From: a virus
Reading direction: 5' to 3' (one strand)
IMG/VR virus record: IMGVR_UViG_3300037311_000293
DNA: 64,000 nucleotides
Shown: in pieces, positions 12,779 to 46,281 of the stretch
Layout of the letters: every line of letters starts with the position of its first letter
Position numbering within the stretch: position 1 is the first letter of the stretch
Made by a program: the position numbers and the translations under genes
The notes under the pieces: generated by a model
The model's input: only the letters and a program-made list of their open reading frames with translations
The model's database searches: none
Told to the model about the DNA's origin: nothing

Positions 12779-12825
12779 CTTGACTCTCCTGGTTGCCTGT
12801 TGGTGATGGGGTCCGGCTTGGGGGC

Positions 12826-13302
12826 TCAGACCAGCGTCTGAAGGATGCGGAGACGCCCGCCGTTGTTCGCCGCCACCTTGGTGACGTAGCCGATGATGAG
12901 GCCACCCGCCGAGGCGACGAGGCCACTGCGGTTGACGCTGCCGCTGGCGGCGGTGTTGACGGTGCCCTGCTGGACTGCCGCACCGAGGGTCGTCAGACCC
13001 GTGGCGAAGACGATGGTGTCGGCCTCGAAGGCTCCGCCGCCCATGATGGCGGAGAGCTTGCGGCTGGCCTGCACGTTGGTGTCGCCGCGGTCCTCGATGG
13101 CGAAGAACGAGGGGTGCGCGGGGTTGGAGGCACGCGCCCACTTGTACGTGCTGTCCATGAAGACGAGCTCGCCATCGATCAGCGGCACCACCGCCGTGTT
13201 CGTGGGGTCGAGGAGACGGACATCCGCCACCTCCAGGGGCTTGCGCACGAGTCGGTCCAGGGTGGGCTGGACGACCTCGAACTTGCGATCGTAGCTGGCC
13301 AT
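12826..13302 (-). CDS. Putative capsid decoration/cement protein
   Basis: 158 aa beta-rich, highly biased codons, directly upstream of the capsid gene, RBS GGAGG. Confidence 0.55.
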   Translation of the reverse strand: MASYDRKFEVVQPTLDRLVRKPLEVADVRLLDPTNTAVVPLIDGELVFMDSTYKWARASNPAHPSFFAIEDRGDTNVQASRKLSAIMGGGAFEADTIVFATGLTTLGAAVQQGTVNTAASGSVNRSGLVASAGGLIIGYVTKVAANNGGRLRILQTLV

Positions 13303-23158: not shown

Positions 23159-23207
23159 CAAAAGAATGGGGGACGGGCCGTAGGGCCTAGTCTCCCGCTC
23201 TTTTGCT
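23159..23207. terminator. Bidirectional terminator between convergent genes
   Basis: CAAAAGA...GGGGAC GGGCC-GTAG-GGCCT AGTCTCCC...TCTTTTG imperfect hairpin. Confidence 0.6.
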
Positions 23208-25045
23208 TACATCGCGTAGTCCTGCGAAATCTTTGCTTCGATCTCTTCCATCGCGAAGTCTTCACTCCGACTTCGAGCCGCGTCATCCGTACTGTGCTCC
23301 TGAATCGGCGCGATGATGTCAGGCCGCCGGTGCTGCAAGAAGCTCGCGAGCATACAGTAGATGATCGAATGGAAGGTGTCGTCCGGAATACCCCGTGGTT
23401 TGTCGTATTTGATCATCTTCATCGAATCCGAGTACTCGGAATGGATCGACAAGATGTCATCGGCAAACGGGGTCTTGTAGACGTCCCAGTCGGGTAGGCG
23501 GATCTTCTTGGTCTTCAGTGCCATGAAGATGTCCGCCATGATGGGGGTGCGGAACACGATGTAGCGGTTGAGCGCGCTCTTGTACGTCACCTTCCGAGGG
23601 GATCGTGCCGCGTACTGGAACTGGTGGATACGCTTCGGGCCGAACACCGAGGTCAGCTTCTTGTTGGGGTGGAAGCCCATACCGTAGTCGACGCCAACGA
23701 ACTTCAAGCGGAACTTCCGGATGAGCCGCATGATCTCTTCCATCTGCGGATCAGGATCTACAAGCTGACCATCGAAGCGCTTGGAATACAAGATCTGAAA
23801 GCTCGAGTCGTTTCGTACGTAACCGCCGACCGTGAGCACGGTGTAGGCGTGCTCACCAGTACCCCAGTCGATGCCGCCAAAGAGCTCGTGGCTCTGCGCC
23901 AACGTAGCCACGGCATCTTCGTCCATGGTGTAGGTACTGGTCTCGTCGCAGGACATGACGAGTTCGGCGCGAGTGATCGGTTTGGTGCCGGCGTCGAAGC
24001 TCAGCGCCATGACCTCGTTCATGAACTGCGCCGTGGGGTAGTTCTCCATGGCGTGGATGATCGAGCGCCACTTCGAATACGGATCTGGAGAGTCCATGTC
24101 GGGCTTCCAGAACCACGGCACCATGAGGCGGCAGATCCTATACCCCTCGAACTCTGCCCCTGGATTCATCTCAACCCAACGCGCCGCCGGATGCTCGGGG
24201 TTGATGGGGTGACCACAGCGGTCGCAGATCGGTCCTTTCTTGCCGATGTTCTTCGGACCCAACACGTTCCAGTGCCAGGTACCCGGCTGGTTCGGCGTAC
24301 CGTGCCTGTCGCAGGGGATGCACCACTCGGCTTGGGTCGACTGCTTTGACCAAATGCTCTCGATCGTGTTGTCGAAGGTCTTCGGGGTCCCGCTGTACAT
24401 GTAGAGCGGGTTCTTGAAGTGCGACGCCGTCTCCGCGATGACGGGCATGACGTCCTGCAAAAGATCCTGAACCTCATCGGCGAACACTGCGTTGTTCGAC
24501 AAGCCGCGAATACGGTCAGCGCTCAAGAAGGCATAGCGAAGGTAGATCTTCGACCGATTCAGGAACTCCTTCTCCAACAGGTTGTAAGTGAGGCTCTTGT
24601 GCGTAAGGGCCTTCACCATCGGCGACAGATCAATGATGTCGTCGATACGCGCAGTCGAAAACACCTTCGTCTGCATAGCGGACGGCGTGACGAACAACGC
24701 CGTGTACATCGGATTCATGCCGACCAAGCTCAGCAGCCGGTTGCCGATCGTCGTCGACTTCTCGGTCTGACGACTCGTCATGAACAAGATCTTGCGCGCC
24801 TGTGTGTCGTAGACCCGGCGAAGATACTCGCGCTCCGAGAACTCGATGGGCTTGACTGCACCACGATCTCCGTCTTTGATACGGACGAAATGCTCAACCC
24901 ATTGCGAGCTCTTGAGCTTGATCTTGGTTGTACGACGCCGAACCTTCTTCTTCGTGAACGGATCGTCGACCCGAGTGTTCGGCTCTCGACTGGCGTAAGC
25001 AGAGGGATCGATGTCTGAATCCGAAAAGATGGGCCTGCTCGGCAT
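23207..25045 (-). CDS. terL: Terminase large subunit
   Basis: Walker A-like SRQTEKST, Walker B FADEVQD, SGTP coupling motif, nuclease GGIDWG and DDTFHS; start ATG 25045 (alternative GTG 25114). Confidence 0.9.
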   Translation of the reverse strand: MPSRPIFSDSDIDPSAYASREPNTRVDDPFTKKKVRRRTTKIKLKSSQWVEHFVRIKDGDRGAVKPIEFSEREYLRRVYDTQARKILFMTSRQTEKSTTIGNRLLSLVGMNPMYTALFVTPSAMQTKVFSTARIDDIIDLSPMVKALTHKSLTYNLLEKEFLNRSKIYLRYAFLSADRIRGLSNNAVFADEVQDLLQDVMPVIAETASHFKNPLYMYSGTPKTFDNTIESIWSKQSTQAEWCIPCDRHGTPNQPGTWHWNVLGPKNIGKKGPICDRCGHPINPEHPAARWVEMNPGAEFEGYRICRLMVPWFWKPDMDSPDPYSKWRSIIHAMENYPTAQFMNEVMALSFDAGTKPITRAELVMSCDETSTYTMDEDAVATLAQSHELFGGIDWGTGEHAYTVLTVGGYVRNDSSFQILYSKRFDGQLVDPDPQMEEIMRLIRKFRLKFVGVDYGMGFHPNKKLTSVFGPKRIHQFQYAARSPRKVTYKSALNRYIVFRTPIMADIFMALKTKKIRLPDWDVYKTPFADDILSIHSEYSDSMKMIKYDKPRGIPDDTFHSIIYCMLASFLQHRRPDIIAPIQEHSTDDAARSRSEDFAMEEIEAKISQDYAM

Positions 25046-25085
25046 GACTGGCTTCTTCCTCGGCCTTCTAGGTTCTGCGGTCTCG

Positions 25086-25159
25086 GAGTCCCGTAGCGGC
25101 AGCGACGGTGCCACATGGTTCCGTTTCGGGATGGAACCGCTACCGCAGCTACGGGACTC
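25086..25159. other. Long nested inverted repeat upstream of terL
   Basis: GAGTCCCGTAGC (25086-97) / GCTACGGGACTC (25148-59) perfect 12 bp, plus inner GGTTCC/GGAACC. Confidence 0.7.
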
Positions 25160-28614: not shown

Positions 28615-29757
28615 TTACTCGAGTAGAACTTTCTGAGACAGGATTCGCTGTAGAGCCTGGATCCACGCCGGTGAGGGAGAGGCTACCATAGCACCCCCGA
28701 CTACGGTCACTGGCCATACGGCTGACGACAGCAGTTGCACGAGCTCGCGTCCCTTGACGGCTGGGTTCGACGCCGACTCGCTGGCCAGCTTGACCTGAGA
28801 GCCGCCGATTACGTGTACACGAGAGGCGATCTGTTTGATTCCACGATCAGATCGAAGCTCTACGTTACCTTTCACCCTTACGGTCTGATCCCCGTCGACA
28901 TCGAGCACGTCGTTACCGGTGACGGTAACGGTACGATCAGCGCCGATGACCTCGGTCTTTGTACCATCGGTAGTGATGATCAGAGAATAGACTTCGTTCT
29001 CGACCTCGCCGGTATCGCGGTCAATGCCCTTGGGGGCGATGTGTACTTGCCAAGCCGTCTTGGTACCTCCGGGCGCGGCAAGTGGGAAATGACTGACGCG
29101 GACAGAAGCCTTCGCGTCTTGAGCGAACTCGTTGACGTGGAACACGTAGGACGCCGGAGCGTCGCCGCTGGGATCGTCCTCCTGACGCGCCACGGTCCAG
29201 GAGACATCTCCGCCGAAAGTCGAGAGCTCGTAGTTCTCTGCGAAGTCCTTGATGTAGTTCAAGACCGGAATGTAGATCCGTTGCGACAACGGAGTGCTTC
29301 CGATCTGAAGAACACCACCGCGCTTGAGGATGAGGAAGTTCTCGTCTCGAGTCGTGATGGCGATGTCGCCCGGGTTCAACTGCGGGCGCCGAGAACGAAA
29401 GCTCACGTCCGTAGCAGAGCCCTCCGCGGCAGCCGTAGAGCGTTCCGGACCTTCTTCTTCGTTCAGCGTCTGCAACGTCGACGCAGCGCCGAGATACCCC
29501 ATGATGAACGGCGGAGTGTTGTCGCTGGGGAAAGCGATCAAACAGATCGCACCGACCTCGGGGAGATGGTGAATGCCCTCGCCGCTGGAGAAGTGATGGT
29601 AAGGCGACATCACTTGGATGTCTTCGACCGTCTTGCCGCTGTGTCTCGTATCCACGCGCACCGTGAAGGTCTTACGGTTCACGTCCGTGATCACGCCTTC
29701 TTCGCAGCGGAAGTAGGAGTAGCGGTTGTGCGACGGTGCGCCTTCTGTACGTGCCAT
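28615..29757 (-). CDS. Baseplate central spike (gp5/VgrG-like OB-fold plus beta-helix)
   Basis: N-terminal GVITDVNRKTFTVRV...HLPEVGAICLIAF...PFIMGYL OB fold; C-terminal RTVTVTGNDVLDVDGDQTVRVKGN repeats; ATG overlaps the RNAP stop (TAATG). Confidence 0.75.
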   Translation of the reverse strand: MARTEGAPSHNRYSYFRCEEGVITDVNRKTFTVRVDTRHSGKTVEDIQVMSPYHHFSSGEGIHHLPEVGAICLIAFPSDNTPPFIMGYLGAASTLQTLNEEEGPERSTAAAEGSATDVSFRSRRPQLNPGDIAITTRDENFLILKRGGVLQIGSTPLSQRIYIPVLNYIKDFAENYELSTFGGDVSWTVARQEDDPSGDAPASYVFHVNEFAQDAKASVRVSHFPLAAPGGTKTAWQVHIAPKGIDRDTGEVENEVYSLIITTDGTKTEVIGADRTVTVTGNDVLDVDGDQTVRVKGNVELRSDRGIKQIASRVHVIGGSQVKLASESASNPAVKGRELVQLLSSAVWPVTVVGGAMVASPSPAWIQALQRILSQKVLLE

Positions 29758-32700
29758 TACGACCTCTTCAGCGGAGCGGCCGTACCCCAAGGTTTGGCGT
29801 CCGGCCCGGCGCCGACTGTAACACCTACAGCCAGAGCTGGGATCGGGTGCGGACCGGCCACCGAGGAACGCTGACCCGTCTGTGCGGCAGTCATCAAGTT
29901 CTGGCCCAGGCGCTCGCCCTGAAGGCGCGCCATCCAGTCGGTCTGACGACGCAGTGGGTTCTCCTTGGTCGGCACCAGCATCGATTCGTAGCGGATGGGC
30001 TTCTTCCCGTGGAGCACCGTACGGTTGACCTCGTCGATGACGGACTTCTGTACGGTGTCGCCGCGGATGTAGCTACCGTGGTCACCGGGATCTGTGATGC
30101 GAACGATACCAGTGGCGCTGCGTACCGCGAGCTCGACGTGACGACGAAGCACGCCTTCGCGGCCGTAGATGGTTCCGACGCGATCGACCATGTGAGACTG
30201 GACTGCATCCAGACCCTTGGTCTTCAGAAGATCGTGGATGTTGGCCTCACCAGCCGTCAGCTTTTCGCCGCGCTCGACCATCACACCTGGGCGAATGTGA
30301 GGCATCGGCTTCTGCCGCGTCTTGATCGGCGTCGTCTTGCCCTCAAGCACGATGGCCCACCCGCCTTGCTGGAGCTCGCGGACTGAAACCACCTTTCCGG
30401 CCCGGGGCGCCAGAGCTGCGTCTTCGCGGCCGGGCTTTGCCGCGTCGAACAACCGCTGCACCTCTTCGAACTCAGATACCGACTGGCCTGCGGTGCTGAC
30501 GATGCCGCCGCCATGCGTTTGCTTCAGCATGATCTGAGCAGCGCGTTCACCAAGGGCTTGCGCCGCGATGAGACCGACATTCTCACCAGAGCGATACTCC
30601 GCACCGTTGGGGTGGATACCCATGCACTTCGAGCACACGCCCTGCGGCATGCGGCACTTCAATGGACTTCGGACCACGAAACGATCGATGCGGCTTTCCT
30701 TCGCCTTGGCCAGCATGTCGGGAGTCACGACGGCACCAGCGGGGTAGGTGTGCCCGCCGAGCGTGACAGGTTGAGCCAAGTGACGATCGACCACGTCCTT
30801 GTCGGCTACGGACAACGCCATCCCCTGCTGGGTGCCGCAATCGTCGCCAGAGATCGCCTGATCGATGTTGCTTTGCACCAGCAGCTTGGACATGTAGCCG
30901 GGCTTACGAACCGAATCCGTCTTCTGAATCACACCACGGCGAGCACCGGCGGCCTGTAGGAAGTAGCCGCCGAGATCGACACCCTCAGCAAAGCTCTTGG
31001 TCACCGGCACACGAGACGGCTTCCCCAGATGATCCTCTACCAGCATCGGAGCCATGATCAGGCCCTGGAACTGCTCACGCTTGGCCTTGATGCCAGAGCC
31101 CAAGGGAGCAGGGGCCATGTCGCTGACGTTCGTGGGCTTGGCCGCGAGCATCTTGTTGTAGACGTCGTGAATCCGACGCGTCGCCGCCAACCACTTGTCC
31201 GTCGCCTGATCGCTATTCAACGAGGCAACGTCCTTCTTCGTCTCCGAAATGATCTTGTCGCGCTCTCGACGAAGCGGCTCGATGTCCTGAAGCGACACCG
31301 TATGCCCAGACTCGTATGCCATCTGGAATCCCAGGCGGCTCATCCCATCGACTACCTCGACGAAGTGCTTGGGCTGCGTCTTGGCGACATCCTTGAGGAT
31401 CTTCTCCTGGTACTTACGGTCCAGCGGCTTGCTGAGATTCGTGAGGATGTCGGAGCGGTACTTCTCCGGAACGATGAAGGCCATGCGAAGCCGCCCGAGC
31501 GTCGTGTTGCCGACGTTCTTGACGTGGATCTCATCGTTCAGATTGATCCTGTTCTCTCGGAACGCCTTCTCGGCTTCGTCCTTGCTGGCGAAGGTCCCAC
31601 TGCGCTTCCCACGAGGAATCGACATCCGATACAGCGACAGCGCTGCTTCATTGGCCGGAGCGAAGATCACATCACCCGACGCTTCTGAGATGGTACGCGC
31701 GGACGGAAGAATCCGGTGTGCTTCGTCTACGGCCTCCCGAGTGAGAGGAACCATGAGGGCGACGGTGTCACCGTCGATGTCGCCGCCGATCGGAGGAAGA
31801 ATCAGGGGGCTCACCTTGATGGCGGGATCGTCGGTCAGTCGGATGCGCTGAGCCACCAAGCCGTATTGATGAAGCACGGGGTCACGCTTCATCAGCACCG
31901 GGCGCGTCTCCACTTCCTTCTCGAGGGCCTTGATGGCCATCGGGTGCTTCTCGGAGATCATACGTTGCGCCATGTCCGGTCGAACGCGCGCAGCGAGTAG
32001 ACGCTGAGCGACCATGGGGCGCATGAGCTCGAGGGCGATCTTCTTTGGTACACCCATCTCGTCAACACTGAGATTGGGGTCGACAACGATGGTGGCTCGA
32101 GCAGTGTAGTCCTGCTTCTTCGCGATCATCTTGTCTTGGAAGAAGCCATCCTTGGGCTTCTCACCAGAGATCATATGGATGATTCCGGGGAGCGTCTTGT
32201 CCGGATTCTCTTTGGTCCCACGCATGTCCAAGTCGAGAGCCTTCTTCCCCTTCGGCGTCGTACCAAGAAGGTTCTGGAGCTCCTGGTACAGGCCGGCACG
32301 CGTATCCAGCGTGTTGTTGTACGGGACCTTGCCCTCGCCCTTGGCCAGCGACTCATTCACCATCCCGAGACGCTTGTACAACGCGTTGAGCGGATTGTTC
32401 TTGATCGTACCGTCGGGCAGCGTGGTCTGCGGACGGAAGACCGGAGGAAGTACCGGCACGGCCTGGATTGTCCAGGCCTCTGCGGGGGTCTTCTTGGCCT
32501 CCTTCAGTGTGAGGAGCGTCTTGTACTTGAAGTTCAGCTTGTTGAGCGTCGCGCCCTTGGTCTTGGGGTCGTTGATCTCCGCAAGAGTAGCCTTCAGCGC
32601 CTTGTCGAGATCGACCTTGGCGAGTGCTGCCTTGATCCCCTTGCCGCCGTAGAGGCCACCCGGAAGGGTTTTCTTACCCTCGACGATCGCCGGAATGTCG

Positions 32701-35700
32701 GCCTCGGAGATACCGAGGGTGTGTGCGATGGCGCGCGAGAACACCGGGTTGGGCATCGGCTCTACGAGCTCGATGTGCCCCCAATGGGTACCCGTGGGTC
32801 CGCCGGTGACGTAGGGGTCGAAGATACCACCGGGTTCGGGCTTGTCGTCCTTGCCTCGGATCGAGCGCGTCGGGCGCTTGATGACGCCACGACTAAGACC
32901 TCGGGTCTCTGCGTCGCTTCGGGGCATCAGACGGATCTCAGCCCCGTTCTTCTGAACGTCCAGACCAAGTCCCGTCAGCATGGCCTCGAACTTCTTGAAC
33001 ACGAACGGGATACGGGGCGCCGGGATGCGCTCACCGTTTGTCAGCGCACCCCAGACCTCTCGGGCCTGCGGCTGGTCGGACTTCAGAGTCTGCATCTCAC
33101 GCAGATTGTCCTTGAGCCCGGCTGCGAGAGCGGCGTAGACGCCAAGAGAGCCGATGCTCTGCGCACCGGTGTGGTCTCCGCCCTTGGGGACTTTGGTGTC
33201 GGTGTCGTAATGAATCTTTGGAGCGCCGTACTGCGTAACGATGGAGTCGTAGCCGCCACCACGGACATGCGTCTTCTTGTCGATCTGATGCTCGAGCTGG
33301 AAGGCGTAGTGCGGACCGGTCATCACCTCACCGAGCTTCCGACCGGTCTTCGGGTCGTACAGCGTCTCGGTGTCCTTGATGCCGTGCTTCTTGAGCTCGT
33401 CTTGGACCTTCTTGAGGTAGTCGACTCCACCCTGGAAGTTCTTCACCAGGTACGTCTTACCCGTCTTGTCCGCGATCTTGCCTGCCGCGGTCTCGAGAAG
33501 CTGACCCGGATTCATACGACCCGGGACGGATACGGGGTTGATGAGCATCTCGACGGGCTTGCCCTTGCCGTCTACGGGCATCTCCTTGTCGTCCAAGATC
33601 GAGGTCACAATACCCTTCGCGCTGTGCCGCGTAGAGATCTTCGACCCGATCTGAGCAGGCTCTACCGTGCGGACATGTACGACGACGTTCTTGCCCACAC
33701 GTTCCGCACGGATGACCTCACCCTCGTACTCGCTGTCCCAAATCATCGTGGCGTTGTTGAATCGGTTGCGGAGGCGCTTTCCGATCTTGTACTTCGCCGT
33801 GATGTCGGACGATCCTGGAGTCTGTGATTCGTTGAGCGCAAGAACGAGAGGATCGCCAGGACGAACGCGCGTACCAGGACGCACGATACCGTCGTCTCCG
33901 ATGTGCTTGAGCTTGTCGTTTCCGTAGACCGCTGGCTTAGCGATCAGAAACTCCTTCTTTCCGATACGGTGTGTGTCCGTCACAAGCATCGAAGGCTTGT
34001 ACAGATGTTCGGATGCCAGACGCTGAGCCGCGCTGGCCGAGATCACAATACCGTCTTCGTGGTTCGACCCATTGGCCAGGTAAGCCGTGCGCAGATTGGT
34101 CCCGAGGGCCAGTGTGCCGTCCTTGGTGAAGTTGTTGTCGGCGACGAGCTGCCCAGCGCGCACCTTCTGTCCGGGCTTCACCGTGGGGTGGGAGTGGAGC
34201 TCGCCCTTGTCGTGGTTCGTTGGATAGTGGTGGTAGAGCGGGACGCTGTGCGCCTTGCCATCTGCGTCTTGGATCGTGATGGCGTCCTCCGTGACGGACT
34301 TCACTACGCCGTCGACAGGGGCTTTGTGCGCCAGGAAGCCACCACCAATGAGTCCTTCGAACGTCTTCCCCGCCCCGGCCTCCACCTGAACCTTCGGGGG
34401 TTCCCGGCCCACGACACTGATGGCCTGGGCCATGTGACGCGCCGACATCGTAGAACGACCAGCGGAGTCGTTCTGCATGAAGGGAACCAAGTTCGTTTCG
34501 ATGGCAAAAACCTGAGACGCATTCGGCATCACGTAGTCCGCCTTGGTCCACGGGATGTCGTCTCGCATGTGCCCGCTGCCGTCGGACATACGCACTGCCT
34601 TACCAAGGGGCTGGGGCTTTCCTGCCTTCCACTTCACCTGATCGGGGAGGATCACATTGCTCACCGCAGCCGTCGCGGCGTCGACATCTTCGAACTTCCC
34701 GGTCTTCAGATTGTAGAGACGGACGTGCGGTTTGCGATCGCGAATCTCAACACCGAACGCAAGATGAGTGTTGACGCCGGCATTGGACTCCGGAGTGAAC
34801 ACGGGATCCAAGAAGCCGAGATGACTGGGATCGAGGGCGGTGTTCGACTTCGACAACGCATGCTGGTTCTGGATACCGCCAGGACCAGCGATGGTGACCA
34901 TGCTGTGATCCGCCAGCATTGCCAGCGGATTGGTTTGCTTGCCGTTCGAAGCCAACGATGTCGTGAAGGCGTGAAACAACGGCTTCTGCAAGAGGTCGGG
35001 CATGACGACGTCACGAAGCACCGATGCATCGCCGGACATCAGACGCTGCTGCACCTTTGGGCGCCCGAGTACCTGTTGAATGCGGCGTTGAATCTCCGGG
35101 GAAGCCTTCTCCAAGCGATCTGCAAAGTGATCCTTGGCCGTCCACAGCTCCTTGTATCGAAGACTGTCGATGGGGTCGGGCTCCGCACGCTTCGCCGCGA
35201 CGTCGAGCAGCTTCGTAGCGGCACGGAACAGAACATCACCGTTCACTTGCTCGGACTTCACCCCGACGTTGGCGTGCGCCACTGCGGGGTCCATCTTGGT
35301 CCCTTCGAAGATGGCACGGGTCTCGAGCAGCAGATTCGTCTTTGGCCCCGGAGGCTCCTTGCGCCAGGTCTCGTAGAGCGATCGAAGATCTTTGTCCAAG
35401 TTGGACTTCGCCTTGGACGCCTTGAAGGCATCCTCGCCCCACGACGCCTTCATCTTCTCGTCAGGCACACCCAGAGCGTGGAGCACGGAGTACAGAGGGA
35501 TCTTTCGGTTACCCACCTTCATGTGGAGGTAACCGCTCATGTCCATCTGCATGTCGAAGCTGCGCCCCTTGGCGAGCTGAAACTGGGCCTCGAACTCTCC
35601 GGCACGCTCGGTGGCCTTGACGTAAACACCCGGGCGAAGACGCCACTGGTTCGAGATGAACTTCTCTTGACCGCCAACGATGTAGCTGTACTGCCGGGTC

Positions 35701-35990
35701 AACTTGGGGATCTTGGCTAGCTGGGCCTTACGGCTAGTCAGCACCTTTCCCGAGCCGGTGTCTACGACCTCGACGACGCCGGTCAGGGAAGCAGCCCACG
35801 ACCGCCCTTCCAGCTTCGCTTTGAACTGGTCGTGGATGTCGTCGACACCCAAACGATCGTCGACCTGTAGGTCGCGTACGCGCACCTCGAGGCGTCCAGT
35901 GCGGTCCTTCACGGGGAAGGTCGACTCGATCTGCCCGATGAGCTGCTGCTTGAGCTCGTCGAACTGGCGATGGGGGTCCGATGTCAGCAC
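29757..35990 (-). CDS. rpoBC: Fused beta-beta' multisubunit RNA polymerase (single polypeptide)
   Basis: 2077 aa. Beta motifs: GFLDPVFTPES, LVPFMQNDSAGR, NHEDGIVIS, GSKISTRHSAKG, NPVSVPGRMNPGQ, LREMQTLKSD. Beta' motifs: GHIEL, PVLPPVFRP, KKQDYTARATI, KRDPVLH, GGDIDGD, RSPLKC..VCSKC, IAAQALGE. Confidence 0.95.
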   Translation of the reverse strand: MLTSDPHRQFDELKQQLIGQIESTFPVKDRTGRLEVRVRDLQVDDRLGVDDIHDQFKAKLEGRSWAASLTGVVEVVDTGSGKVLTSRKAQLAKIPKLTRQYSYIVGGQEKFISNQWRLRPGVYVKATERAGEFEAQFQLAKGRSFDMQMDMSGYLHMKVGNRKIPLYSVLHALGVPDEKMKASWGEDAFKASKAKSNLDKDLRSLYETWRKEPPGPKTNLLLETRAIFEGTKMDPAVAHANVGVKSEQVNGDVLFRAATKLLDVAAKRAEPDPIDSLRYKELWTAKDHFADRLEKASPEIQRRIQQVLGRPKVQQRLMSGDASVLRDVVMPDLLQKPLFHAFTTSLASNGKQTNPLAMLADHSMVTIAGPGGIQNQHALSKSNTALDPSHLGFLDPVFTPESNAGVNTHLAFGVEIRDRKPHVRLYNLKTGKFEDVDAATAAVSNVILPDQVKWKAGKPQPLGKAVRMSDGSGHMRDDIPWTKADYVMPNASQVFAIETNLVPFMQNDSAGRSTMSARHMAQAISVVGREPPKVQVEAGAGKTFEGLIGGGFLAHKAPVDGVVKSVTEDAITIQDADGKAHSVPLYHHYPTNHDKGELHSHPTVKPGQKVRAGQLVADNNFTKDGTLALGTNLRTAYLANGSNHEDGIVISASAAQRLASEHLYKPSMLVTDTHRIGKKEFLIAKPAVYGNDKLKHIGDDGIVRPGTRVRPGDPLVLALNESQTPGSSDITAKYKIGKRLRNRFNNATMIWDSEYEGEVIRAERVGKNVVVHVRTVEPAQIGSKISTRHSAKGIVTSILDDKEMPVDGKGKPVEMLINPVSVPGRMNPGQLLETAAGKIADKTGKTYLVKNFQGGVDYLKKVQDELKKHGIKDTETLYDPKTGRKLGEVMTGPHYAFQLEHQIDKKTHVRGGGYDSIVTQYGAPKIHYDTDTKVPKGGDHTGAQSIGSLGVYAALAAGLKDNLREMQTLKSDQPQAREVWGALTNGERIPAPRIPFVFKKFEAMLTGLGLDVQKNGAEIRLMPRSDAETRGLSRGVIKRPTRSIRGKDDKPEPGGIFDPYVTGGPTGTHWGHIELVEPMPNPVFSRAIAHTLGISEADIPAIVEGKKTLPGGLYGGKGIKAALAKVDLDKALKATLAEINDPKTKGATLNKLNFKYKTLLTLKEAKKTPAEAWTIQAVPVLPPVFRPQTTLPDGTIKNNPLNALYKRLGMVNESLAKGEGKVPYNNTLDTRAGLYQELQNLLGTTPKGKKALDLDMRGTKENPDKTLPGIIHMISGEKPKDGFFQDKMIAKKQDYTARATIVVDPNLSVDEMGVPKKIALELMRPMVAQRLLAARVRPDMAQRMISEKHPMAIKALEKEVETRPVLMKRDPVLHQYGLVAQRIRLTDDPAIKVSPLILPPIGGDIDGDTVALMVPLTREAVDEAHRILPSARTISEASGDVIFAPANEAALSLYRMSIPRGKRSGTFASKDEAEKAFRENRINLNDEIHVKNVGNTTLGRLRMAFIVPEKYRSDILTNLSKPLDRKYQEKILKDVAKTQPKHFVEVVDGMSRLGFQMAYESGHTVSLQDIEPLRRERDKIISETKKDVASLNSDQATDKWLAATRRIHDVYNKMLAAKPTNVSDMAPAPLGSGIKAKREQFQGLIMAPMLVEDHLGKPSRVPVTKSFAEGVDLGGYFLQAAGARRGVIQKTDSVRKPGYMSKLLVQSNIDQAISGDDCGTQQGMALSVADKDVVDRHLAQPVTLGGHTYPAGAVVTPDMLAKAKESRIDRFVVRSPLKCRMPQGVCSKCMGIHPNGAEYRSGENVGLIAAQALGERAAQIMLKQTHGGGIVSTAGQSVSEFEEVQRLFDAAKPGREDAALAPRAGKVVSVRELQQGGWAIVLEGKTTPIKTRQKPMPHIRPGVMVERGEKLTAGEANIHDLLKTKGLDAVQSHMVDRVGTIYGREGVLRRHVELAVRSATGIVRITDPGDHGSYIRGDTVQKSVIDEVNRTVLHGKKPIRYESMLVPTKENPLRRQTDWMARLQGERLGQNLMTAAQTGQRSSVAGPHPIPALAVGVTVGAGPDAKPWGTAAPLKRS

Positions 35991-35996
35991 AGCGGC

Positions 35997-36026
35997 AGTC
36001 TACTTCCCCCTCAAGAAAAGGGTCAA
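35997..36026 (-). promoter_or_regulatory. Sigma70-like promoter TTGACC-N18-TAGACT, leaderless RNAP mRNA predicted
   Basis: The -10 hexamer ends exactly 6 nt before GTG 35990; same geometry at 46233-46262. Confidence 0.6.
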
Positions 36027-36032
36027 CGCGCG

Positions 36033-36046
36033 CCTATCAGTAAGTG
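36033..36046 (+). promoter_or_regulatory. 14-bp motif CCTATCAGTAAGTG
   Basis: Perfect repeat at 46268-46281; both copies sit at divergent operon junctions. Confidence 0.65.
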
Positions 36047-36285: not shown

Positions 36286-36647
36286 AAACCAAGGCACACG
36301 TGGATCTTCATCCACACGACGAAGACGAGACATCCTTCGACGACATGACGCCGAACTGTCATGCGTGCGACACCGAGCCCGTGGGCGTCGTCACCGAGGT
36401 CTATCTCGTCGTCAAAGGGATGCTGTTCCCCAGCTCGGAATACGACGTCCCGGTGTTCATTCCGGATCCCGACGTGAGAATGACGGTGCTCACGATGCCG
36501 AATGGGCAACTGGGGATCGTCACCGACCAAAGCATCACGAAGTACATGCACGCAGAGTGTTTGGATCAGCTCGTGAACGAAGCGGGTTCAACGTTCTGGG
36601 AAGACGCGGAAGAAGAGGAAGAGGAAGAGGAAGAGGACGACGAATGA
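36282..36647 (+). CDS. Zinc-finger-like protein with acidic tail
   Basis: CHAC...HAEC ligands; poly-E tail; ATGA overlaps at both ends. Confidence 0.65.
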   Translation: MKTKAHVDLHPHDEDETSFDDMTPNCHACDTEPVGVVTEVYLVVKGMLFPSSEYDVPVFIPDPDVRMTVLTMPNGQLGIVTDQSITKYMHAECLDQLVNEAGSTFWEDAEEEEEEEEEDDE

Positions 36648-37771
36648 GCTACGGGTATCTACAGGCGAAGATCCTAGTGGGCCGTGAACTGAAGGCGCAA
36701 CACTCTCTGGCGGGCAAGACGGCGTCTGCGCTGAACGTGCCCCTCCTTCTGGGGCCGGTAGGGGGCGGTAAGACCGCCCTGGCTCGTGGGATGGCCGAAG
36801 AGCACGCAATGTTCTACGCCCCCATCAACAGCGGGGAGAACAGCGACCCCACGGATGTCGCGGGCGTTCCCGTGCCCAGCATGATCCGCTCCCTTCTCCG
36901 TGACGGTACGAGCTCCGAGAAGGCAGACGCCCGCGGCCAATACATGGAGTGGGTCCTCAATCGCTACGCCACCATGGCGTGTTCGGAGCCCGTGTTTCTG
37001 TTCTTCGACGACCTCGACAAGGCGCCGCCGAAGGTCCAAGGCGCTCTCCTCGGGATCACGGGGAACAGGATGTTCCGCGATCGCCCGCTGCATCCCGGTA
37101 CGCTGCTGATGGGTGCTGGGAACCGTATCGATGATGACGCGTACGCCAACGAGATCAGCGAGTCGTTGCGTACGCGCATGACCATCATCGAGATGGTTCC
37201 TGATGTGCGTTCCTTCTCGCTGTATGGCACACAGACCGGTGAGATCAACCCGGCGTTCTTGGGCTACCTGCAATGGAAACCCGAACACCTCCACAAGTGG
37301 CAAGACGGCGTGAACCGCTTCCCCACACCGCGTGGGTGGTGGGAGGCGTCGAAGCAAACCGAGCTGTTCCCCGACCCGTTCGAGGATGTCTTCGGTAACG
37401 GCGTCGCCGAGAACTGGAAGGGGATCGTAGCCCGTAAACTCGGCGACCCCGTGGCCAATGACTTCTGGGCGTGGTTCGAGATCATCTCGAAGGTCGACGT
37501 CCAAGGAATCTTGATCAACGGAACGCTCCCAGTACTCGCCGATCCAAAGAAAACGCGCATGACTCAGTTCGCCTGTGTGTATGCCGTGTCTCAGGTTCTC
37601 AACAAGGACGGCGTATCGAAGAAGCACACGGGACTTGCTGTCCTTGTCGACAGCCTTGAGGCCGACATGCGCGTGGCCTTTCTGGTCCAGCTCTCCGGCA
37701 AGCTCAGGGCGGACATCGCGAAGCTCTTCCCACACGTCGCAAGCACAGTGATGAAGGATCTGGTTGGATGA
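36644..37771 (+). CDS. MoxR-type AAA+ ATPase
   Basis: Start ATG 36644; Walker A GPVGGGKT, Walker B FLFFDDLDKA, GAGN, SLRTR, PTPRGW. Confidence 0.85.
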   Translation: MSYGYLQAKILVGRELKAQHSLAGKTASALNVPLLLGPVGGGKTALARGMAEEHAMFYAPINSGENSDPTDVAGVPVPSMIRSLLRDGTSSEKADARGQYMEWVLNRYATMACSEPVFLFFDDLDKAPPKVQGALLGITGNRMFRDRPLHPGTLLMGAGNRIDDDAYANEISESLRTRMTIIEMVPDVRSFSLYGTQTGEINPAFLGYLQWKPEHLHKWQDGVNRFPTPRGWWEASKQTELFPDPFEDVFGNGVAENWKGIVARKLGDPVANDFWAWFEIISKVDVQGILINGTLPVLADPKKTRMTQFACVYAVSQVLNKDGVSKKHTGLAVLVDSLEADMRVAFLVQLSGKLRADIAKLFPHVASTVMKDLVG

Positions 37772-38949
37772 TCGACGAAGCATCAGTTACCGACAGAGAA
37801 GCCTTGGATCTGGTACGAGAAGCCCTCCGCGAGCTGATGCTTCGGTTCCCGCTGGCGGGTCTTTCCTACATGGGAGAGAACATCGTCGTACGCGAAGAGT
37901 CATCGATCAAGACGATGGACACCGATGGTCGCTTTGTCCGTTACTCACCTGAGTGGGTTCGCTCTTGTACAGACCGCGGGCGTGTGTTCGATCTTCTCCA
38001 CGAGTGGCTTCACGTCTTCGGGAATCATCCGGCGCGCCTTGGCGGGCGCGATCCTTTCTTGTGGAACGTAGCGGTTGATATCGTGGTGGTACGTCAGGCA
38101 TCCGAGATCCTGACCACCGCCACAGACAACTGGCCCCCACCAGATGACGGAATCATCCCGCCAGCATGGGCCAAGGACATGGACGCCGAGACGATTTACG
38201 ACGTCTTGGCCAGCAACGCGAACAAGGTCCCGGCACCAAAGAGCGCAGAAGGCGTTCGTGGCGCCAATGACCTCAGACGAAGAGACCCCCAGGAGGCCGA
38301 GGCTTTTCGTGGGTCGTTTGCGAGTGAGCTCGCGCAAATCTGTGCTGTCCAGCAACAAGCCACAGGGCTCACACCAAAGGAGCTCTACGGCAGCGAGCTC
38401 TACAGCCGGCTGGATCAGATCCTGAAGGGCAATGTCCCGTGGTCGAAACTACTACGGGGCCAGCTCGTCAGCGAACTCGGTGCTGAGGAACACGGCTACG
38501 ATCCGCCGAATCGACGCTACTACCCCGATATCATCCTGCCGCAGGCCTTCGACACCACACAGCGTAAGTTGCTGATCGCTGTAGATGTTTCTGCCAGCGT
38601 CGGTCAGGATCTACTGGACGAGTTCATCGGCAACGTCGTACCCGCGGCAGCTCGTGCAGCAGAAACCTGGGTAGTGACGTTCGACGCCGTGGTCCGCGAG
38701 ACAGTAAAAACCCGCCATCCACGCCGTGTCCTTCGTGAGGTCCGCTTTCTCGCAGGATCCCATAACCACACCAGTGTTCGAGAAGTGTTCGCCTTGGTCG
38801 ATCAGATCAAACCTACGTCGACTGTCGTCCTGACAGATGGGCACGTGCTTCTTCCCGACGAGCCGTACCCCAAAACTCTATGGATCATCCCCAGGGGCGG
38901 AAAGAAGCAACCCTGGGGACGCAACTACATCATGGAGGCTTCTTGGTGA
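37768..38949 (+). CDS. Metallopeptidase-vWA fusion (DUF2201-like)
   Basis: TMDTDG and LLHEWLH (HExxH) N-terminal; MIDAS DVSAS and LTDG C-terminal. Confidence 0.85.
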   Translation: MIDEASVTDREALDLVREALRELMLRFPLAGLSYMGENIVVREESSIKTMDTDGRFVRYSPEWVRSCTDRGRVFDLLHEWLHVFGNHPARLGGRDPFLWNVAVDIVVVRQASEILTTATDNWPPPDDGIIPPAWAKDMDAETIYDVLASNANKVPAPKSAEGVRGANDLRRRDPQEAEAFRGSFASELAQICAVQQQATGLTPKELYGSELYSRLDQILKGNVPWSKLLRGQLVSELGAEEHGYDPPNRRYYPDIILPQAFDTTQRKLLIAVDVSASVGQDLLDEFIGNVVPAAARAAETWVVTFDAVVRETVKTRHPRRVLREVRFLAGSHNHTSVREVFALVDQIKPTSTVVLTDGHVLLPDEPYPKTLWIIPRGGKKQPWGRNYIMEASW

Positions 38950-40253: not shown

Positions 40254-40285
40254 AAGAAAGCCCCCGAAAGGGGGCTGCCTTCTTC
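40253..40285. terminator. Bidirectional terminator
   Basis: AGCCCCC-GAAA-GGGGGCT GNRA hairpin between convergent stops. Confidence 0.8.
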
Positions 40286-42185
40286 AGCTTTGCCCCGCCC
40301 GCCGGAGAGGTAGCTGCTCCGGCAGCGGTCGCATATCCACTGCACCTTGCTGGCCTTGTTGAGGCGGCGGCTGCGCTCCTGGCCCCGTTGCCTGTGGCAT
40401 CTCGGGAGGCACCATCTGTTGCTGCACCATGCCGGCCATTTCGGGGCTGGCGTCACGGAGCTGAGCAAAAGCGATCTCTTGTTCGTCAGGCGGAAGAGTT
40501 TTGATCTTCTGCGCATACGCCGCGGCAAGGGCGTCGAGAGGCACGCCGGCAGGCTGAGACAGCGATTGTTGCGATTCTGCAAAGGGATCGTTCTTCGGCT
40601 GCTGCTCCCGTACCTGCGCCGTAGCAATCGCTGCCTGGGCCTTGGCCTGGTACTTCGCCGCAACGAGTTGGGCCTCACCCATGATCTGCGCGTTCTGCAA
40701 CTGCTGCCCGCGAAGTGTCTCGGCCTTCAGCTTCGACTCCGCCGCCATGAGCTCAAGTTCGTCCTCGACCTTCAAGTCGGCGTAGCTCAGCAACGTGGCG
40801 TCAGAGATCTTGTTCATGCTGTTGAGCTGCGCCATGAACGCCTGGCGTTGTAGATCATCAGCCATCCGGAACGGCTTGAAGCGGCCCTCGGGTACCGGAA
40901 GGTTCAGGTAGGCGCCCAGACGCTTCATTACCCAGTCGAGCAGCCTGTGATGGGCGTGCACGTTGCTGAGGAAGAAGTTCTCAAGCATGCGCATCGAAAC
41001 CGACGAGCCCGCGTAGGTGCCGCGACCGAACACGAGGTCCACGGGGAAGCCCATACCAGCGACCATGACCTCGAGGGCCTGTTGGATCTCCGGCATCAGC
41101 AGAAGGCTGCGGCCGTTCTCACCGATGGTTTGGTGGCCCAGCGGGAACGGAAGGATGCCGTAGTACGCGGGATCTGCGCGTTGACGCGCGAGCTCTCGGC
41201 GGATGTGGTCGCGCCAGTTCGACAGATCAACAGTCGTGAAGGGGTCGGCGCCGGCAGTGGCGGGCTGCGGGAACAGGAAGATCTGAGGCACCAAGTGAGT
41301 CAGAAGGACTGCTTCTTGCGCCTTGCGCATGACCTGGACGTAGAACGCTTCCTTCAGCACAGGCATCAGAAGCGGGATGCCCCATCCGCGCGACATCGTA
41401 GACAGGCTCGGACGTCGAAGATGGAAGACCTCGGAACGATCGAAGACGAGACTGCGCTTCGTACGAACGGCCTCCAGGAAAATCTCGGGCGTCGTCGCTA
41501 CGAGATCTTTGCGCCCCATCATGACTTGCGAACGGAAGTCCGGAGACAGGTCGAGGCCGTAATCCATACGGCCAGTGGCTTCGTTGTAGAAGATGTGGAC
41601 GTTCTCCGGGTTCCATCGGATCAGATTGATCTCGGAGTACTTGGGGTAGTAGTCGTCTCGGCTTTCCGCCCAATGGGCCTGTCCGCACTTCGTGCATTCC
41701 AGCCAGAAACGGTGATTCGTGTAGCGCCACGACGGGCGGCTCTGCAACGCGTCGTGGACCTCGCCGCAGTTCGAGCACTTCAGCTTCTTCCGGAACGGGA
41801 AGCTGACAGACACGAAGGCGTTGCCGTACACGAAGTAGTCGAGATTGATCTCGAACTGTTGAACGCGATAGTTCAGCACCCCGTTCATCAGGGTGTCCCA
41901 CTTCTTGACGACCCCGTTGTCCTTGTGCTGGAGCACCAAGTCGGTGACCGGATACTCCGCAGCCCGAGTCACCACGCTGTTGATGATCCCATGCGTCAGG
42001 TAATAGAACCGACAGAACCCGAACAGCGCCTTGATCGAGGGCGGCGTGTACGTGCTGGCCTGGTCGAAGAACGGATTGGAGAAGGGCTGGTACTTGCGCC
42101 CCAAGATCTGCCCGCGGTCGGCATTGCCGCCCAGCGCAGAACCCCGAGCTCCACCGAAGGCACTACCGCCTCCAAAGAACGTCAT
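40284..42185 (-). CDS. Portal protein
   Basis: 633 aa; LDYFVYGNAFV, RWNPENVHI, VFHLRR...GWGIPLL portal signatures; Q-rich C-terminus. Confidence 0.85.
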   Translation of the reverse strand: MTFFGGGSAFGGARGSALGGNADRGQILGRKYQPFSNPFFDQASTYTPPSIKALFGFCRFYYLTHGIINSVVTRAAEYPVTDLVLQHKDNGVVKKWDTLMNGVLNYRVQQFEINLDYFVYGNAFVSVSFPFRKKLKCSNCGEVHDALQSRPSWRYTNHRFWLECTKCGQAHWAESRDDYYPKYSEINLIRWNPENVHIFYNEATGRMDYGLDLSPDFRSQVMMGRKDLVATTPEIFLEAVRTKRSLVFDRSEVFHLRRPSLSTMSRGWGIPLLMPVLKEAFYVQVMRKAQEAVLLTHLVPQIFLFPQPATAGADPFTTVDLSNWRDHIRRELARQRADPAYYGILPFPLGHQTIGENGRSLLLMPEIQQALEVMVAGMGFPVDLVFGRGTYAGSSVSMRMLENFFLSNVHAHHRLLDWVMKRLGAYLNLPVPEGRFKPFRMADDLQRQAFMAQLNSMNKISDATLLSYADLKVEDELELMAAESKLKAETLRGQQLQNAQIMGEAQLVAAKYQAKAQAAIATAQVREQQPKNDPFAESQQSLSQPAGVPLDALAAAYAQKIKTLPPDEQEIAFAQLRDASPEMAGMVQQQMVPPEMPQATGPGAQPPPQQGQQGAVDMRPLPEQLPLRRAGQS

Positions 42186-44726: not shown

Positions 44727-46226
44727 TCAGGTTGCCGCAGCAAGGCGGGACAGTACCACCTTTTGCGGATCCGGCATCGACTTGAAGATTCCGACGGGGT
44801 CCTTTGCGAAGCTGCTGGCGAAGCCATCGCCGAACAACTCATCGAGTTTCGCGGTGCGCTCTGAGAGCGACTTGAGCTGCATGCCGCTGACGTAGTCGTT
44901 CCCCGCGGACCACGAGTAGGTCTCGCACTCGTCGGCCGCATGCTTCGTTCCGTAGACCGCGGCGTATGGGTCGAGGAACCCGACACCCGGCCGGTTGTAG
45001 CTACCGGACGCACCGGTCTCCACATCGGCTCCCATGATCATGTTGACCATGACCATGGGATCGATCTCCGCCTTCTTCTCGAGCAAGAGCTCGTACACCT
45101 CTTCGTGTCCGGTGCCCATGAAAGCCGTGATACGAGCGTGAAGCTGGGCTTCGACGTTCTCCCCGTACTCGGTGCCGGCGTAGTTCATGACGGCGCCAGA
45201 GAGCTTGACTCCGAGCTCATCGGCGCGCTGAGCCACGGACACCGCGTATGCGCGGCGTTCTTCGAGCGGGAACGAGTGCAGATGATCGTCGAAGTACGCC
45301 GCGGCCTGCTTGACCTGTGCGGTGGTGTCGATGGGATAGCGCTCGAGGTGGGGAAGTGCGTAGTGAACCGCGCTTGCTTGCTTCTTCTTGACGTGACCAT
45401 CGAACAGAGTGAGATCACCGCAGTGAGCCCACTCCGCAGACGCCAGGAGTGCAGAAGTCTTCTGGGGGAGGTCGAGGCTCTTACTGGGCGAAGAGCGGAC
45501 AGGATGATTGCGCAGAGTACCCTGCGGCATGATCTCGGTACCCGTGAGGTCTGCCTTCTTCGCCATCACGGGGTCGATCTGGTCCCTCTTCTCGAGCTGC
45601 TTGTCCAGCTTCTTGTGCGTCGAGTCGAGCTTGGAGAACAGATCGAACAACCCGAAAATGTGGCCGGACTCCGGACCATCCCCGCGTTGCATCGCGTTGT
45701 CTTGTTCCTTCGTGAGCTCGACTGTGCGACCAGAGGCCGTCTTGGTTCCTGAAGCCTGCGCGGCGCGGAACTCGTCCATGCGCTCATGGGCCTTCTCGCT
45801 TCCGCTTCTTGCGCGATGCGCCATGTCCATGGCACCGAAGCCGACGGTGAGAGCCTTTCCGATCATCGCCTTCTTGATCAGATCTGTCGGAGGCTGAAGG
45901 TCATACCACGAACACCCCACCACAAGGTTCGACGCAACCTTTGCCTGGACGTCATCGGGCAGTAGGTGCCCACACTCCAGGAAGTAGAGGATGGAGATCG
46001 TGGTGTGCTCGGGGTCGTGCATCGCGTACTTGCGAAGCACGTTCCCATGGTTCGTGGCCACCAGCCCGAACAGGCGGTCGGGAAGCTCCTCGAGCTCGTC
46101 GGTCGTCAACAAACGCGACGCCGCCAGCTTGGTCGGTAGCTTCTGCTTGAGGGCAGCCAGCTTGTTGCGGAGGACGAGACCACGAGGGTCGTCGTAGATG
46201 TCGAGCACGATCCCGGCGATTCGCAT
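44727..46226 (-). CDS. Virion protein with two DUF6582-like (F/Y-A-L-P...R-Y-P) modules
   Basis: Start ATG 46226; ELEELPDRLFGL...RKYAMHD and HYALPHLERYPIDTTAQVKQAAAYF; many K-x-A/S motifs. Confidence 0.6.
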   Translation of the reverse strand: MRIAGIVLDIYDDPRGLVLRNKLAALKQKLPTKLAASRLLTTDELEELPDRLFGLVATNHGNVLRKYAMHDPEHTTISILYFLECGHLLPDDVQAKVASNLVVGCSWYDLQPPTDLIKKAMIGKALTVGFGAMDMAHRARSGSEKAHERMDEFRAAQASGTKTASGRTVELTKEQDNAMQRGDGPESGHIFGLFDLFSKLDSTHKKLDKQLEKRDQIDPVMAKKADLTGTEIMPQGTLRNHPVRSSPSKSLDLPQKTSALLASAEWAHCGDLTLFDGHVKKKQASAVHYALPHLERYPIDTTAQVKQAAAYFDDHLHSFPLEERRAYAVSVAQRADELGVKLSGAVMNYAGTEYGENVEAQLHARITAFMGTGHEEVYELLLEKKAEIDPMVMVNMIMGADVETGASGSYNRPGVGFLDPYAAVYGTKHAADECETYSWSAGNDYVSGMQLKSLSERTAKLDELFGDGFASSFAKDPVGIFKSMPDPQKVVLSRLAAAT

Positions 46227-46232
46227 GCACGA

Positions 46233-46262
46233 ATCGTACTGCGTGCAAGGGAAGTGGGTCAA
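46233..46262 (-). promoter_or_regulatory. Sigma70-like promoter TTGACC-N18-TACGAT, leaderless mRNA predicted
   Basis: The -10 hexamer ends exactly 6 nt before ATG 46226. Confidence 0.6.
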
Positions 46263-46267
46263 ACCGT

Positions 46268-46281
46268 CCTATCAGTAAGTG
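46268..46281 (+). promoter_or_regulatory. 14-bp motif CCTATCAGTAAGTG
   Basis: Identical to 36033-36046; abuts the GGAGG RBS of the first gene of the replication operon. Confidence 0.65.

Follow-up and report, generated by a model that had tools for sequence, protein, structure and literature searches.

Which enzyme transcribes the genes of a phage that carries, in a single gene, what looks like the whole core of a bacterial RNA polymerase (RNAP)? The question is raised by a stretch of 64,000 nucleotides (the window) from the IMG/VR virus record IMGVR_UViG_3300037311_000293, in which an earlier note, made from the letters alone, had singled out one long open reading frame (ORF) as a phage-encoded fusion joining subunits beta and beta'. 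The window is the reverse strand of record positions 17517-81516; the record itself measures 177,453 bp, has a CheckV completeness of 100% and represents an uncultured, probably lytic tailed phage of the myovirus type. Known cellular-type RNAPs of phages come either in scattered pieces (phiKZ, AR9) or in two genes (mReC), whereas here we find one gene and, elsewhere in the genome, one sigma gene. The explanation that we favour, and to which we give as a whole a probability of roughly 0.75, is that the ORF encodes the sole RNAP of the phage: a covalently tethered core that would be guided by a phage sigma factor, packaged in the virion and insensitive to rifampicin.

Profile searches place all beta domains ahead of all beta' domains on the 2077-residue chain. 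On the beta side, Rpb2_3 matches at residues 351-413 and Rpb2_6 (PF00562) at 557-920 (E 3e-53); on the beta' side follow Rpb1_1 at 1148-1232 (a weak match), Rpb1_2 at 1291-1427 (E 9e-18), Rpb1_3 at 1434-1570 and Rpb1_5 at 1671-1972 (E 1e-17), and the matches to PF00623, PF04983 and PF04998 lie above the curated cut-offs. E-values as small as these argue that the matches did not arise by chance in a GC-rich frame. Sequence searches of the PDB pair residues 13-1013 with a cyanobacterial beta subunit (E 1e-68) and the beta' module with Thermus beta' (E 8e-82). The modules meet at residues 1008-1023 (LGLDVQKNGAEIRLMP), where the earlier note had put the junction of its uninterrupted ORF, and residues 1-16 of E. 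coli beta' have no counterpart there. An AlphaFold model of residues 540-1480, which takes in both barrels with the junction between them, reached a predicted local distance difference test score (pLDDT) of 82.8 and a predicted template modelling score (pTM) of 0.71. In this model the junction consists of two confident strands (block pLDDT 82-93), and by fold it comes closest to beta chains from bacteria and plastids (E ~1e-33).

What the chain has lost was mapped by aligning it to five bacterial enzymes and recording gaps of at least 12 residues in E. coli numbering. The beta deletions are 1-39, 221-358 (SI1), 627-639, 935-1046 (SI2) and 1125-1178 (like SI1 and SI2 a lineage-specific insert); those of beta' are 1-16, 67-98 (the zinc ribbon), 158-178, 554-569, 665-677, 706-719, 945-1131 (SI3, in the trigger loop) and 1372-1406 (the C-terminal tail). 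Five of the deletions are short gaps of 13-21 residues. The four-cysteine zinc ribbon at the N-terminus of beta' is absent from all ten fused phage sequences that were aligned; the clamp helices of beta' are kept. With an identity of ~26% to Salmonella beta and beta' (~26-28% to bacterial enzymes) and its lineage inserts deleted, the protein is indeed as compact and far diverged as had been proposed. The label of a minimal two-barrel enzyme does not suit it: essentially all conserved regions of bacterial beta and beta' are retained, and the alignment describes a full bacterial-type core minus the lineage-specific inserts and the beta' zinc ribbon.

This architecture is not peculiar to one contig. 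Clustered at 90% identity, full-length homologues of 2050-2100 residues (52-92% identical, on contigs as long as ~200 kb) fall into over 110 groups, and a scan of IMG/VR found at least 263 contigs with the fused family, pattern scans returning the fused family only; because full-length homologues recur in so many clusters and contigs, the fusion is not an artefact of assembly. In the 80 contigs retained of the 263 the match is mostly one continuous segment of ~6.1-6.4 kb at 34-76% identity; in the remainder an insert lengthens it or the contig stops short. With the beta' half as query, an exhaustive HMMER search returned 1976 representatives (of clusters at 50% identity) at E <=1e-30. Among the best 150 of these, nearly all full-length proteins start their beta' part near residue 1000, or further along if they bear an insert, and the shorter entries are fragment-like. 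A search for short, split beta' forms brought up mostly fragments, together with one pair of 1317 and 758 residues on a contig of 179,829 bp. Family genomes measure ~160-200 kb. Judged from these homologues, the phage family is very large and its enzyme is normally fused, split forms being occasional.

Many relatives contain intein or homing-endonuclease inserts (P0012, P0014, P0036, P0042, P0058 and many HMMER matches of 2400-4739 residues). In these the beta' alignment is interrupted at the DxDGD loop (~1402-1404 in our protein), near the trigger loop (~1827-1834) and at two more sites. The RNAP studied here has no such insert.

The family already has cultured members. Those that match most of the protein are Vibrio phages D69, D148 and D181 and Salmonella phage Arash only, at ~28-31% identity. 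Arash, the nearest relative in culture, has been annotated, its RNAP being neither analysed nor assayed in that work (PMC10585845). It represents a lineage of ~180-kb myoviruses and gives, among cultured phages, the best match to our terminase and portal and the only match to our capsid protein; the sigma matches as well. Both phages have a portal gene followed by the RNAP gene and a gp6-gp8-sigma block, and in both the beta chain continues into the N-terminal part of beta'. The difference lies in the remainder of the enzyme: in Arash and D69 the RNAP occupies two genes of ~1525 and 606 residues, split near residue 1490 of our single chain, and the two Arash genes (gp206 and gp216) lie ~4.8 kb apart. 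With RNAP, sigma, capsid, terminase, portal and gene order shared, comparative evidence assigns our phage to the Arash-like lineage. By tblastn, no homologue was found in this genome of gp205, the small gene before the Arash RNAP, or of gp217, the helicase after gp216; a helicase and the AAA+ ATPase of the window have marginal local similarity to gp217 and nothing more.

If the fused ORF is to transcribe the phage genome, it would do so as the only RNA polymerase that we could recognise, PF00562 having one match in the whole genome; by this profile it is the genome's sole RNAP. A search for a T7-like RNAP (PF00940) also gave zero matches, with a silent positive control that deprives the result of any weight as evidence of absence. 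Genes for alpha and omega (PF01000, PF01193, PF01192) were not found anywhere in the phage genome, while controls were positive in 14 of 14 genomes. Independence of alpha is therefore plausible, use of the host alpha or omega being possible too; in an alpha-independent enzyme the covalent link, and not an alpha dimer, would hold the beta and beta' halves together. The earlier note had reported no alpha, omega or sigma gene, which stands for the window and fails for the genome, where a sigma70-family gene of 271 codons lies outside the window (Table 1). Its product is 29% identical to Arash sigma gp10 (E 8e-24), its block is syntenic with Arash gp6-gp8-gp10, and homologues occur in five of five related complete genomes at 26-66% identity. 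A profile built from 20 relatives matches RpoD, SigA, RpoS and FliA in the PDB (best E 5e-13) and covers regions 2-4 in order, over profile positions ~87-271. These matches identify it as a conserved sigma70-family factor. That the RNAP works with it is probable: the phage sigma would dock on the retained clamp helices and steer the enzyme to phage promoters.

The best candidate for such promoters is a -10-like element, CCTATCAG. The genome has seven copies (counted through the 7-mer CTATCAG) with a Shine-Dalgarno sequence and a start codon ~20 nt behind them; permuted 7-mers (n=200) averaged 0.34 and never exceeded 3, an enrichment of ~20-fold. The sites lie at 36033-36046 (+) and 46268-46281 (+) in the window, where they coincide with two perfect copies of CCTATCAGTAAGTG, and at genome positions 111915, 121070, 128642, 139609, 167890 and others. 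Non-structural genes stand behind them: the sigma gene, the AAA+ ATPase gene, the start of the replication module and others. The element is often found directly 3' of a hairpin with a T run, and it is kept at the same places in relatives.

The RNAP gene itself is preceded by a promoter of another kind, which resembles the sigma70 consensus. The layout TTGACC-N18-TAGACT-N6-GTG recurs upstream of the RNAP gene in 11 of 11 relatives of the near clade, and a similar arrangement heads the other leftward structural operon, at a 511-aa gene. Since in both cases the promoter ends 6 nt before the start codon and a Shine-Dalgarno sequence is missing, the RNAP mRNA and the mRNA of the 511-aa gene are predicted to be leaderless. 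The RNAP gene of the far clade has a Shine-Dalgarno sequence and an ATG start.

The surroundings of the gene suggest a link to the virion. As the earlier note had concluded, the polymerase is phage-encoded: in a complete virus record it has genes for terminase, portal, capsid, sheath and spike around it. The RNAP stop codon and the ATG of the spike gene overlap as TAATG, and in 73 related loci the gene that directly follows the RNAP is the spike gene. On the other side, a portal homologue lies directly upstream on the same strand in the far clade (47 loci) and likewise in Arash; in the near clade, and there only, an AAA+ ATPase/DUF2201 pair on the opposite strand intervenes (16 loci). The order portal-RNAP-spike is conserved across the family and in Arash. 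Virion mass spectrometry of Arash detected gp216 and sigma gp10, and gp206 gave the most spectra, the RNAP spectra exceeding those of the capsid (PMC10585845). The RNAP of our phage would be made alongside the virion proteins, packaged and delivered with the DNA, and early transcription could then proceed without need of the host polymerase. We put carriage in the virion, taken by itself, at even odds.

Several observations weigh against a packaged enzyme guided by the phage sigma. The Arash virion list comprises 116 of 272 proteins, among them ribonucleotide reductase and RNA ligases (PMC10585845), and with metabolic enzymes on the list a carry-over of abundant cytoplasmic proteins is likely. 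The RNAP shows no enrichment (18 seen, 23.6 expected) of a K-x-A/S motif that is enriched in head-module proteins nearby. For the sigma-like protein, neither the region 2 nor the region 3 Pfam match reaches its curated cut-off; the flap tip, the docking site of sigma region 4 in bacterial enzymes, is diverged in sequence and modelled with low confidence; and the candidate CCTATCAG was assigned to the phage enzyme by position alone. Finally, the conserved, host-like promoter before the RNAP gene could be read early by the host polymerase.

This last point fits the most serious competitor, a T7-style enzyme that would stay out of the virion. Here the host RNAP would read TTGACC-N18-TAGACT early, a leaderless mRNA would be translated, and the phage RNAP with its sigma would then take over. 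The near-consensus promoter exactly 6 nt before the GTG, in the window as in the near clade, speaks for such a scheme, and so do the over-inclusive Arash proteome and the missing head-module signature. Against it stand the translational coupling of the RNAP gene to the spike gene at the head of a structural operon, the far clade and Arash, in which the RNAP gene lacks a separate promoter and is preceded, on the same strand, by the portal gene, and the abundance of RNAP over capsid spectra in Arash; moreover, an RNAP made with the late proteins would come too late for early transcription unless it were packaged. We regard the T7-style scheme as possible, though distinctly the less probable. The K-x-A/S motif was also tried as a marker of packaging and set aside as uninformative, since it is not enriched in the RNAP.

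A bolder version of the packaged, sigma-guided enzyme would have a two-gene system independent of alpha and omega, loaded into the particle beside the portal or the spike, ejected with the DNA, and running the whole programme from -10-only CCTATCAG promoters with no host polymerase involved. We consider it doubtful in this complete form. If true, this very large uncultured family would have found a second independent route to host-independent transcription, the first being that of jumbo phages that form a nucleus, and would offer a compact module for orthogonal expression.

Whether the chain can catalyse at all depends on the active site. Across 35 family members with identities to our protein down to 32%, the metal-binding D1404, D1406 and D1408 and the beta residues K784, R788 and K792 (in GSKISTRHSAKG) are invariant, as are G1682 and R1684 of the bridge helix; trigger-loop H1826 is nearly invariant, and the cysteines of the second zinc site (C1718, C1779, C1786 and C1789) vary little or not at all. 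In the clade of our phage the metal loop has the form [G/N][G/A]D[I/V/L]DGD, in a sister tier (36-39% identical) NADFDGD. This pattern of conservation makes it very probable that the ORF encodes a functional, catalytically competent RNAP. In the rifampicin pocket the alignment reveals three changes at classical positions of resistance (D516K, H526D and S531T in E. coli numbering). Because these pocket residues differ, the enzyme would be insensitive to rifampicin.

One might instead see in the gene a relic that has decayed, lost catalysis and survives as a virion protein with a structural or DNA-binding role. The departure of the metal loop from NADFDGD, the lost zinc ribbon and the divergence of rifampicin pocket and flap tip could be read in that way. 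A relic would hardly preserve metal aspartates, beta Lys/Arg residues, bridge helix, trigger-loop histidine and second zinc site over such distances, nor have a sister tier with the canonical loop; in addition, the beta' alignment of relatives is interrupted at the loop that binds metal and close to the trigger loop, longer forms carry intein or homing-endonuclease domains, and inteins typically occupy sites that must stay functional. We hold decay to be highly improbable.

As to the origin of the gene, bacterial enzymes are much closer to one another than to the phage forms. Between the beta' of Salmonella and that of four other bacterial lineages the identity is 52-70%; between Salmonella beta' and fused phage forms binned in the same metagenome-assembled genomes (MAGs) it is 31-38% over the best segments. 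A quick maximum-likelihood tree (25 rows, 2026 columns, LG+G4) was computed on a thin sample: five bacteria from four phyla, drawn as outgroups from MAGs and mislabelled records in the phage collection, are its only cellular rows, and no mReC sequence is among its phage rows. A branch of 1.27 substitutions per site, with a support of 100 in the Shimodaira-Hasegawa-like approximate likelihood ratio test (SH-aLRT), parts the bacteria from all phage sequences. The clade of our phage (support 100) is nested within the wider fused radiation, and Arash and D69 form a pair of their own on the phage side. In species-representative bacterial genomes no close relatives were found: the scan gave eight relatives only, all on MAG-binned contigs and 29-37% identical, and those contigs that were examined also bear a phage portal or spike gene. 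The expectation that the protein would not be nested in a bacterial rpoBC clade is thus borne out in this small tree. A recent capture of a cellular rpoBC fusion of the Helicobacter or Wolbachia type, that is, a bacterial gene on a phage or on a mis-binned contig, is scarcely credible: the architecture resembles such fusions and the best PDB sequence matches are bacterial, but the identity to bacterial enzymes, far below that among bacterial phyla, the long branch, the few and phage-like MAG relatives and the position between portal and spike genes all oppose it.

How does this enzyme compare with those already described? Among uncultured tailed phages there is mReC, the multisubunit-RNAP-encoding Caudovirales (Weinheimer & Aylward 2020, PMC7481178), whose beta and beta' are homologues alignable with cellular enzymes and branch outside them. 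That survey demanded separate beta and beta' genes of >=800 aa plus NADxDGD, and its tables list adjacent separate genes of 1011-1377 aa (beta) and 903-1009 aa (beta'); fusion is mentioned for crAssphage only (PMC7481178). The mention in the earlier note of a metagenomic clade with sometimes fused polymerases therefore finds no support there. Our phage differs from mReC in its fused genes, its GGDIDGD loop and its terminase of the PF05876 type; the mReC capsid matches T4 gp23 (PF07068) and the mReC terminase PF03237 (PMC7481178), and PF07068 has no match in our genome. Six metagenome identifiers that hold contigs of the fused family are absent from the RNAP tables of PMC7481178. Rhizobium phage RHph_TM30 (NC_070966.1), considered as a stand-in for mReC, was dropped: it has a T4-type capsid and a beta' gene and gives no PF00562 match. 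This T4-like phage of 208 kb, with a beta' homologue of 1127 aa, appears to have a beta'-only arrangement.

Reviews of jumbo-phage RNAPs describe split enzymes without a sigma homologue only (PMC7598289, PMC7824862). Like our enzyme, those of phiKZ and AR9 are phage-encoded two-barrel RNAPs of the cellular type without alpha or omega, one set of which is packaged and injected (PMC7598289, PMC7824862), and they set a precedent for alpha-independent assembly and for independence of the host polymerase. They differ in having 4-5 polypeptides, two paralogous sets and no sigma homologue, and they are far more diverged; none is found among the 60 best PDB sequence matches of our protein.

In cellular rpoBC fusions (Helicobacter, Wolbachia) and in engineered, tethered E. 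coli beta-beta', the C-terminus of beta is joined head-to-tail to the N-terminus of beta'. Those proteins are ordinary cellular enzymes with alpha2, omega and canonical motifs, whereas ours shares only ~26% identity with bacterial enzymes, is without the zinc ribbon of beta' and has no adjoining alpha or omega gene. Both barrels also share one polypeptide in crAss-like gp66 and YonO, and the crAss RNAP is virion-associated. By description these proteins are too diverged for COG0085/COG0086 profiles; ours matches Pfam Rpb2/Rpb1 with E-values down to 3e-53. A functional analogy may exist with phages N4 and P23-45, in which a polymerase is carried along with the tail or the ejection apparatus to transcribe the earliest genes. 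The virion RNAP (vRNAP) of N4 is of the T7 type, unlike ours, and PMC10770324 describes that of P23-45 as part of the tape measure protein; the link of our enzyme to the tail consists in gene adjacency and translational coupling to the spike gene only.

What emerges as new from these comparisons, as far as sequences can tell, is a single-chain, cellular-type phage RNAP without the zinc ribbon, paired with its own sigma in a widespread family. A literature search found no description of a full beta-beta' fusion in phages, the coverage of that search being incomplete and novelty not proven by it. A screen that demands two genes and NADxDGD, as the published one did, would miss the branch of the fused family to which our phage belongs. 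If RNAP and sigma prove active on their own, covalent tethering can replace the alpha-dimer scaffold, and the pair would constitute a minimal, probably rifampicin-insensitive transcription system of the bacterial type with its own promoters.

Table 1. Features of the fused RNAP locus and of its phage genome (window positions unless marked as genome).
Feature	Position	Strand	Remarks or basis
Fused beta-beta' RNA polymerase gene	29757..35990	(-)	2077 aa, GTG start, TAA stop, no internal stop
Beta module, residues 1-1015	32946..35990	(-)	alignment to bacterial beta subunits
Beta' module, residues 1016-2077	29760..32945	(-)	clamp helices, bridge helix, trigger loop, second zinc site
Beta/beta' junction LGLDVQKNGAEIRLMP, residues 1008-1023	32922..32969	(-)	LGLDVQKNG / AEIRLMP, linker absent
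Beta catalytic Lys/Arg motif GSKISTRHSAKG (K784, R788, K792)	~33612-33647	(-)	bacterial beta alignment
Metal-binding loop GGDIDGD, residues 1402-1408	31767..31787	(-)	canonical form NADFDGD; motif survey, 121 family proteins
Site of lost beta' N-terminal zinc ribbon	32781..32804	(-)	alignment with five bacterial and ten fused phage enzymes
Sigma70-like promoter TTGACC-N18-TAGACT	35997..36026	(-)	ends 6 nt before RNAP GTG; no Shine-Dalgarno
TTGACC-N18-TACGAT-N6-ATG	46226-46262	(-)	heads other leftward structural operon (511-aa gene); no Shine-Dalgarno
Promoter-like element CCTATCAGTAAGTG	36033..36046	(+)	faces AAA+ ATPase gene, away from RNAP
Sigma70-family gene, 271 aa	genome 167912-168727, outside window		C-terminal helix-turn-helix; weak Pfam region 2 and region 3
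Sheath gene	1238-4327	(-)	structural module
Major head protein gene	11675-13141	(-)	structural module
Large terminase (TerL) gene	23207-25114	(-)	PF05876 GpA_ATPase match
Tail-spike / baseplate-hub gene, 380 aa	28615..29757	(-)	Pfam Phage_base_V, E 7.6e-6; weak Gp5_C match
MoxR-like AAA+ ATPase (AAA_5)	36365-37771	(+)	between portal and RNAP genes
DUF2201 metallopeptidase/VWA protein	37768-38949	(+)	PHROGs label 'HNH endonuclease'
Portal gene	40284..42185	(-)	PHROG portal match; 29% identity to Arash portal gp204, E 5e-75

Beyond the features of Table 1, a replication module occupies the plus strand from ~46300, with helicases, a primase, a family A DNA polymerase and a UvsX-like recombinase. 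Both ends of the record carry a poly-C run, of 25 nt at genome 16-40 and of 9 nt at 177439-177447, each followed by identical bases. Probably the genome is circular or permuted and the contig broke within a homopolymer tract; the completeness estimate of 100% agrees with this.

Two further repeats were noted in the genome. At ~174000-175700, where a crude gene caller placed no gene, there are many regularly spaced copies of ATCGATCGA and GCGTTTGGTAC; the stretch is probably either a repetitive, fibre-like coding region of low GC content at third codon positions (GC3) or a repeat array. At genome 119229 and 149382, the sequence TTGACG...GTATTCT..GTATTCT combines a promoter-like -35 element with a tandem heptamer.

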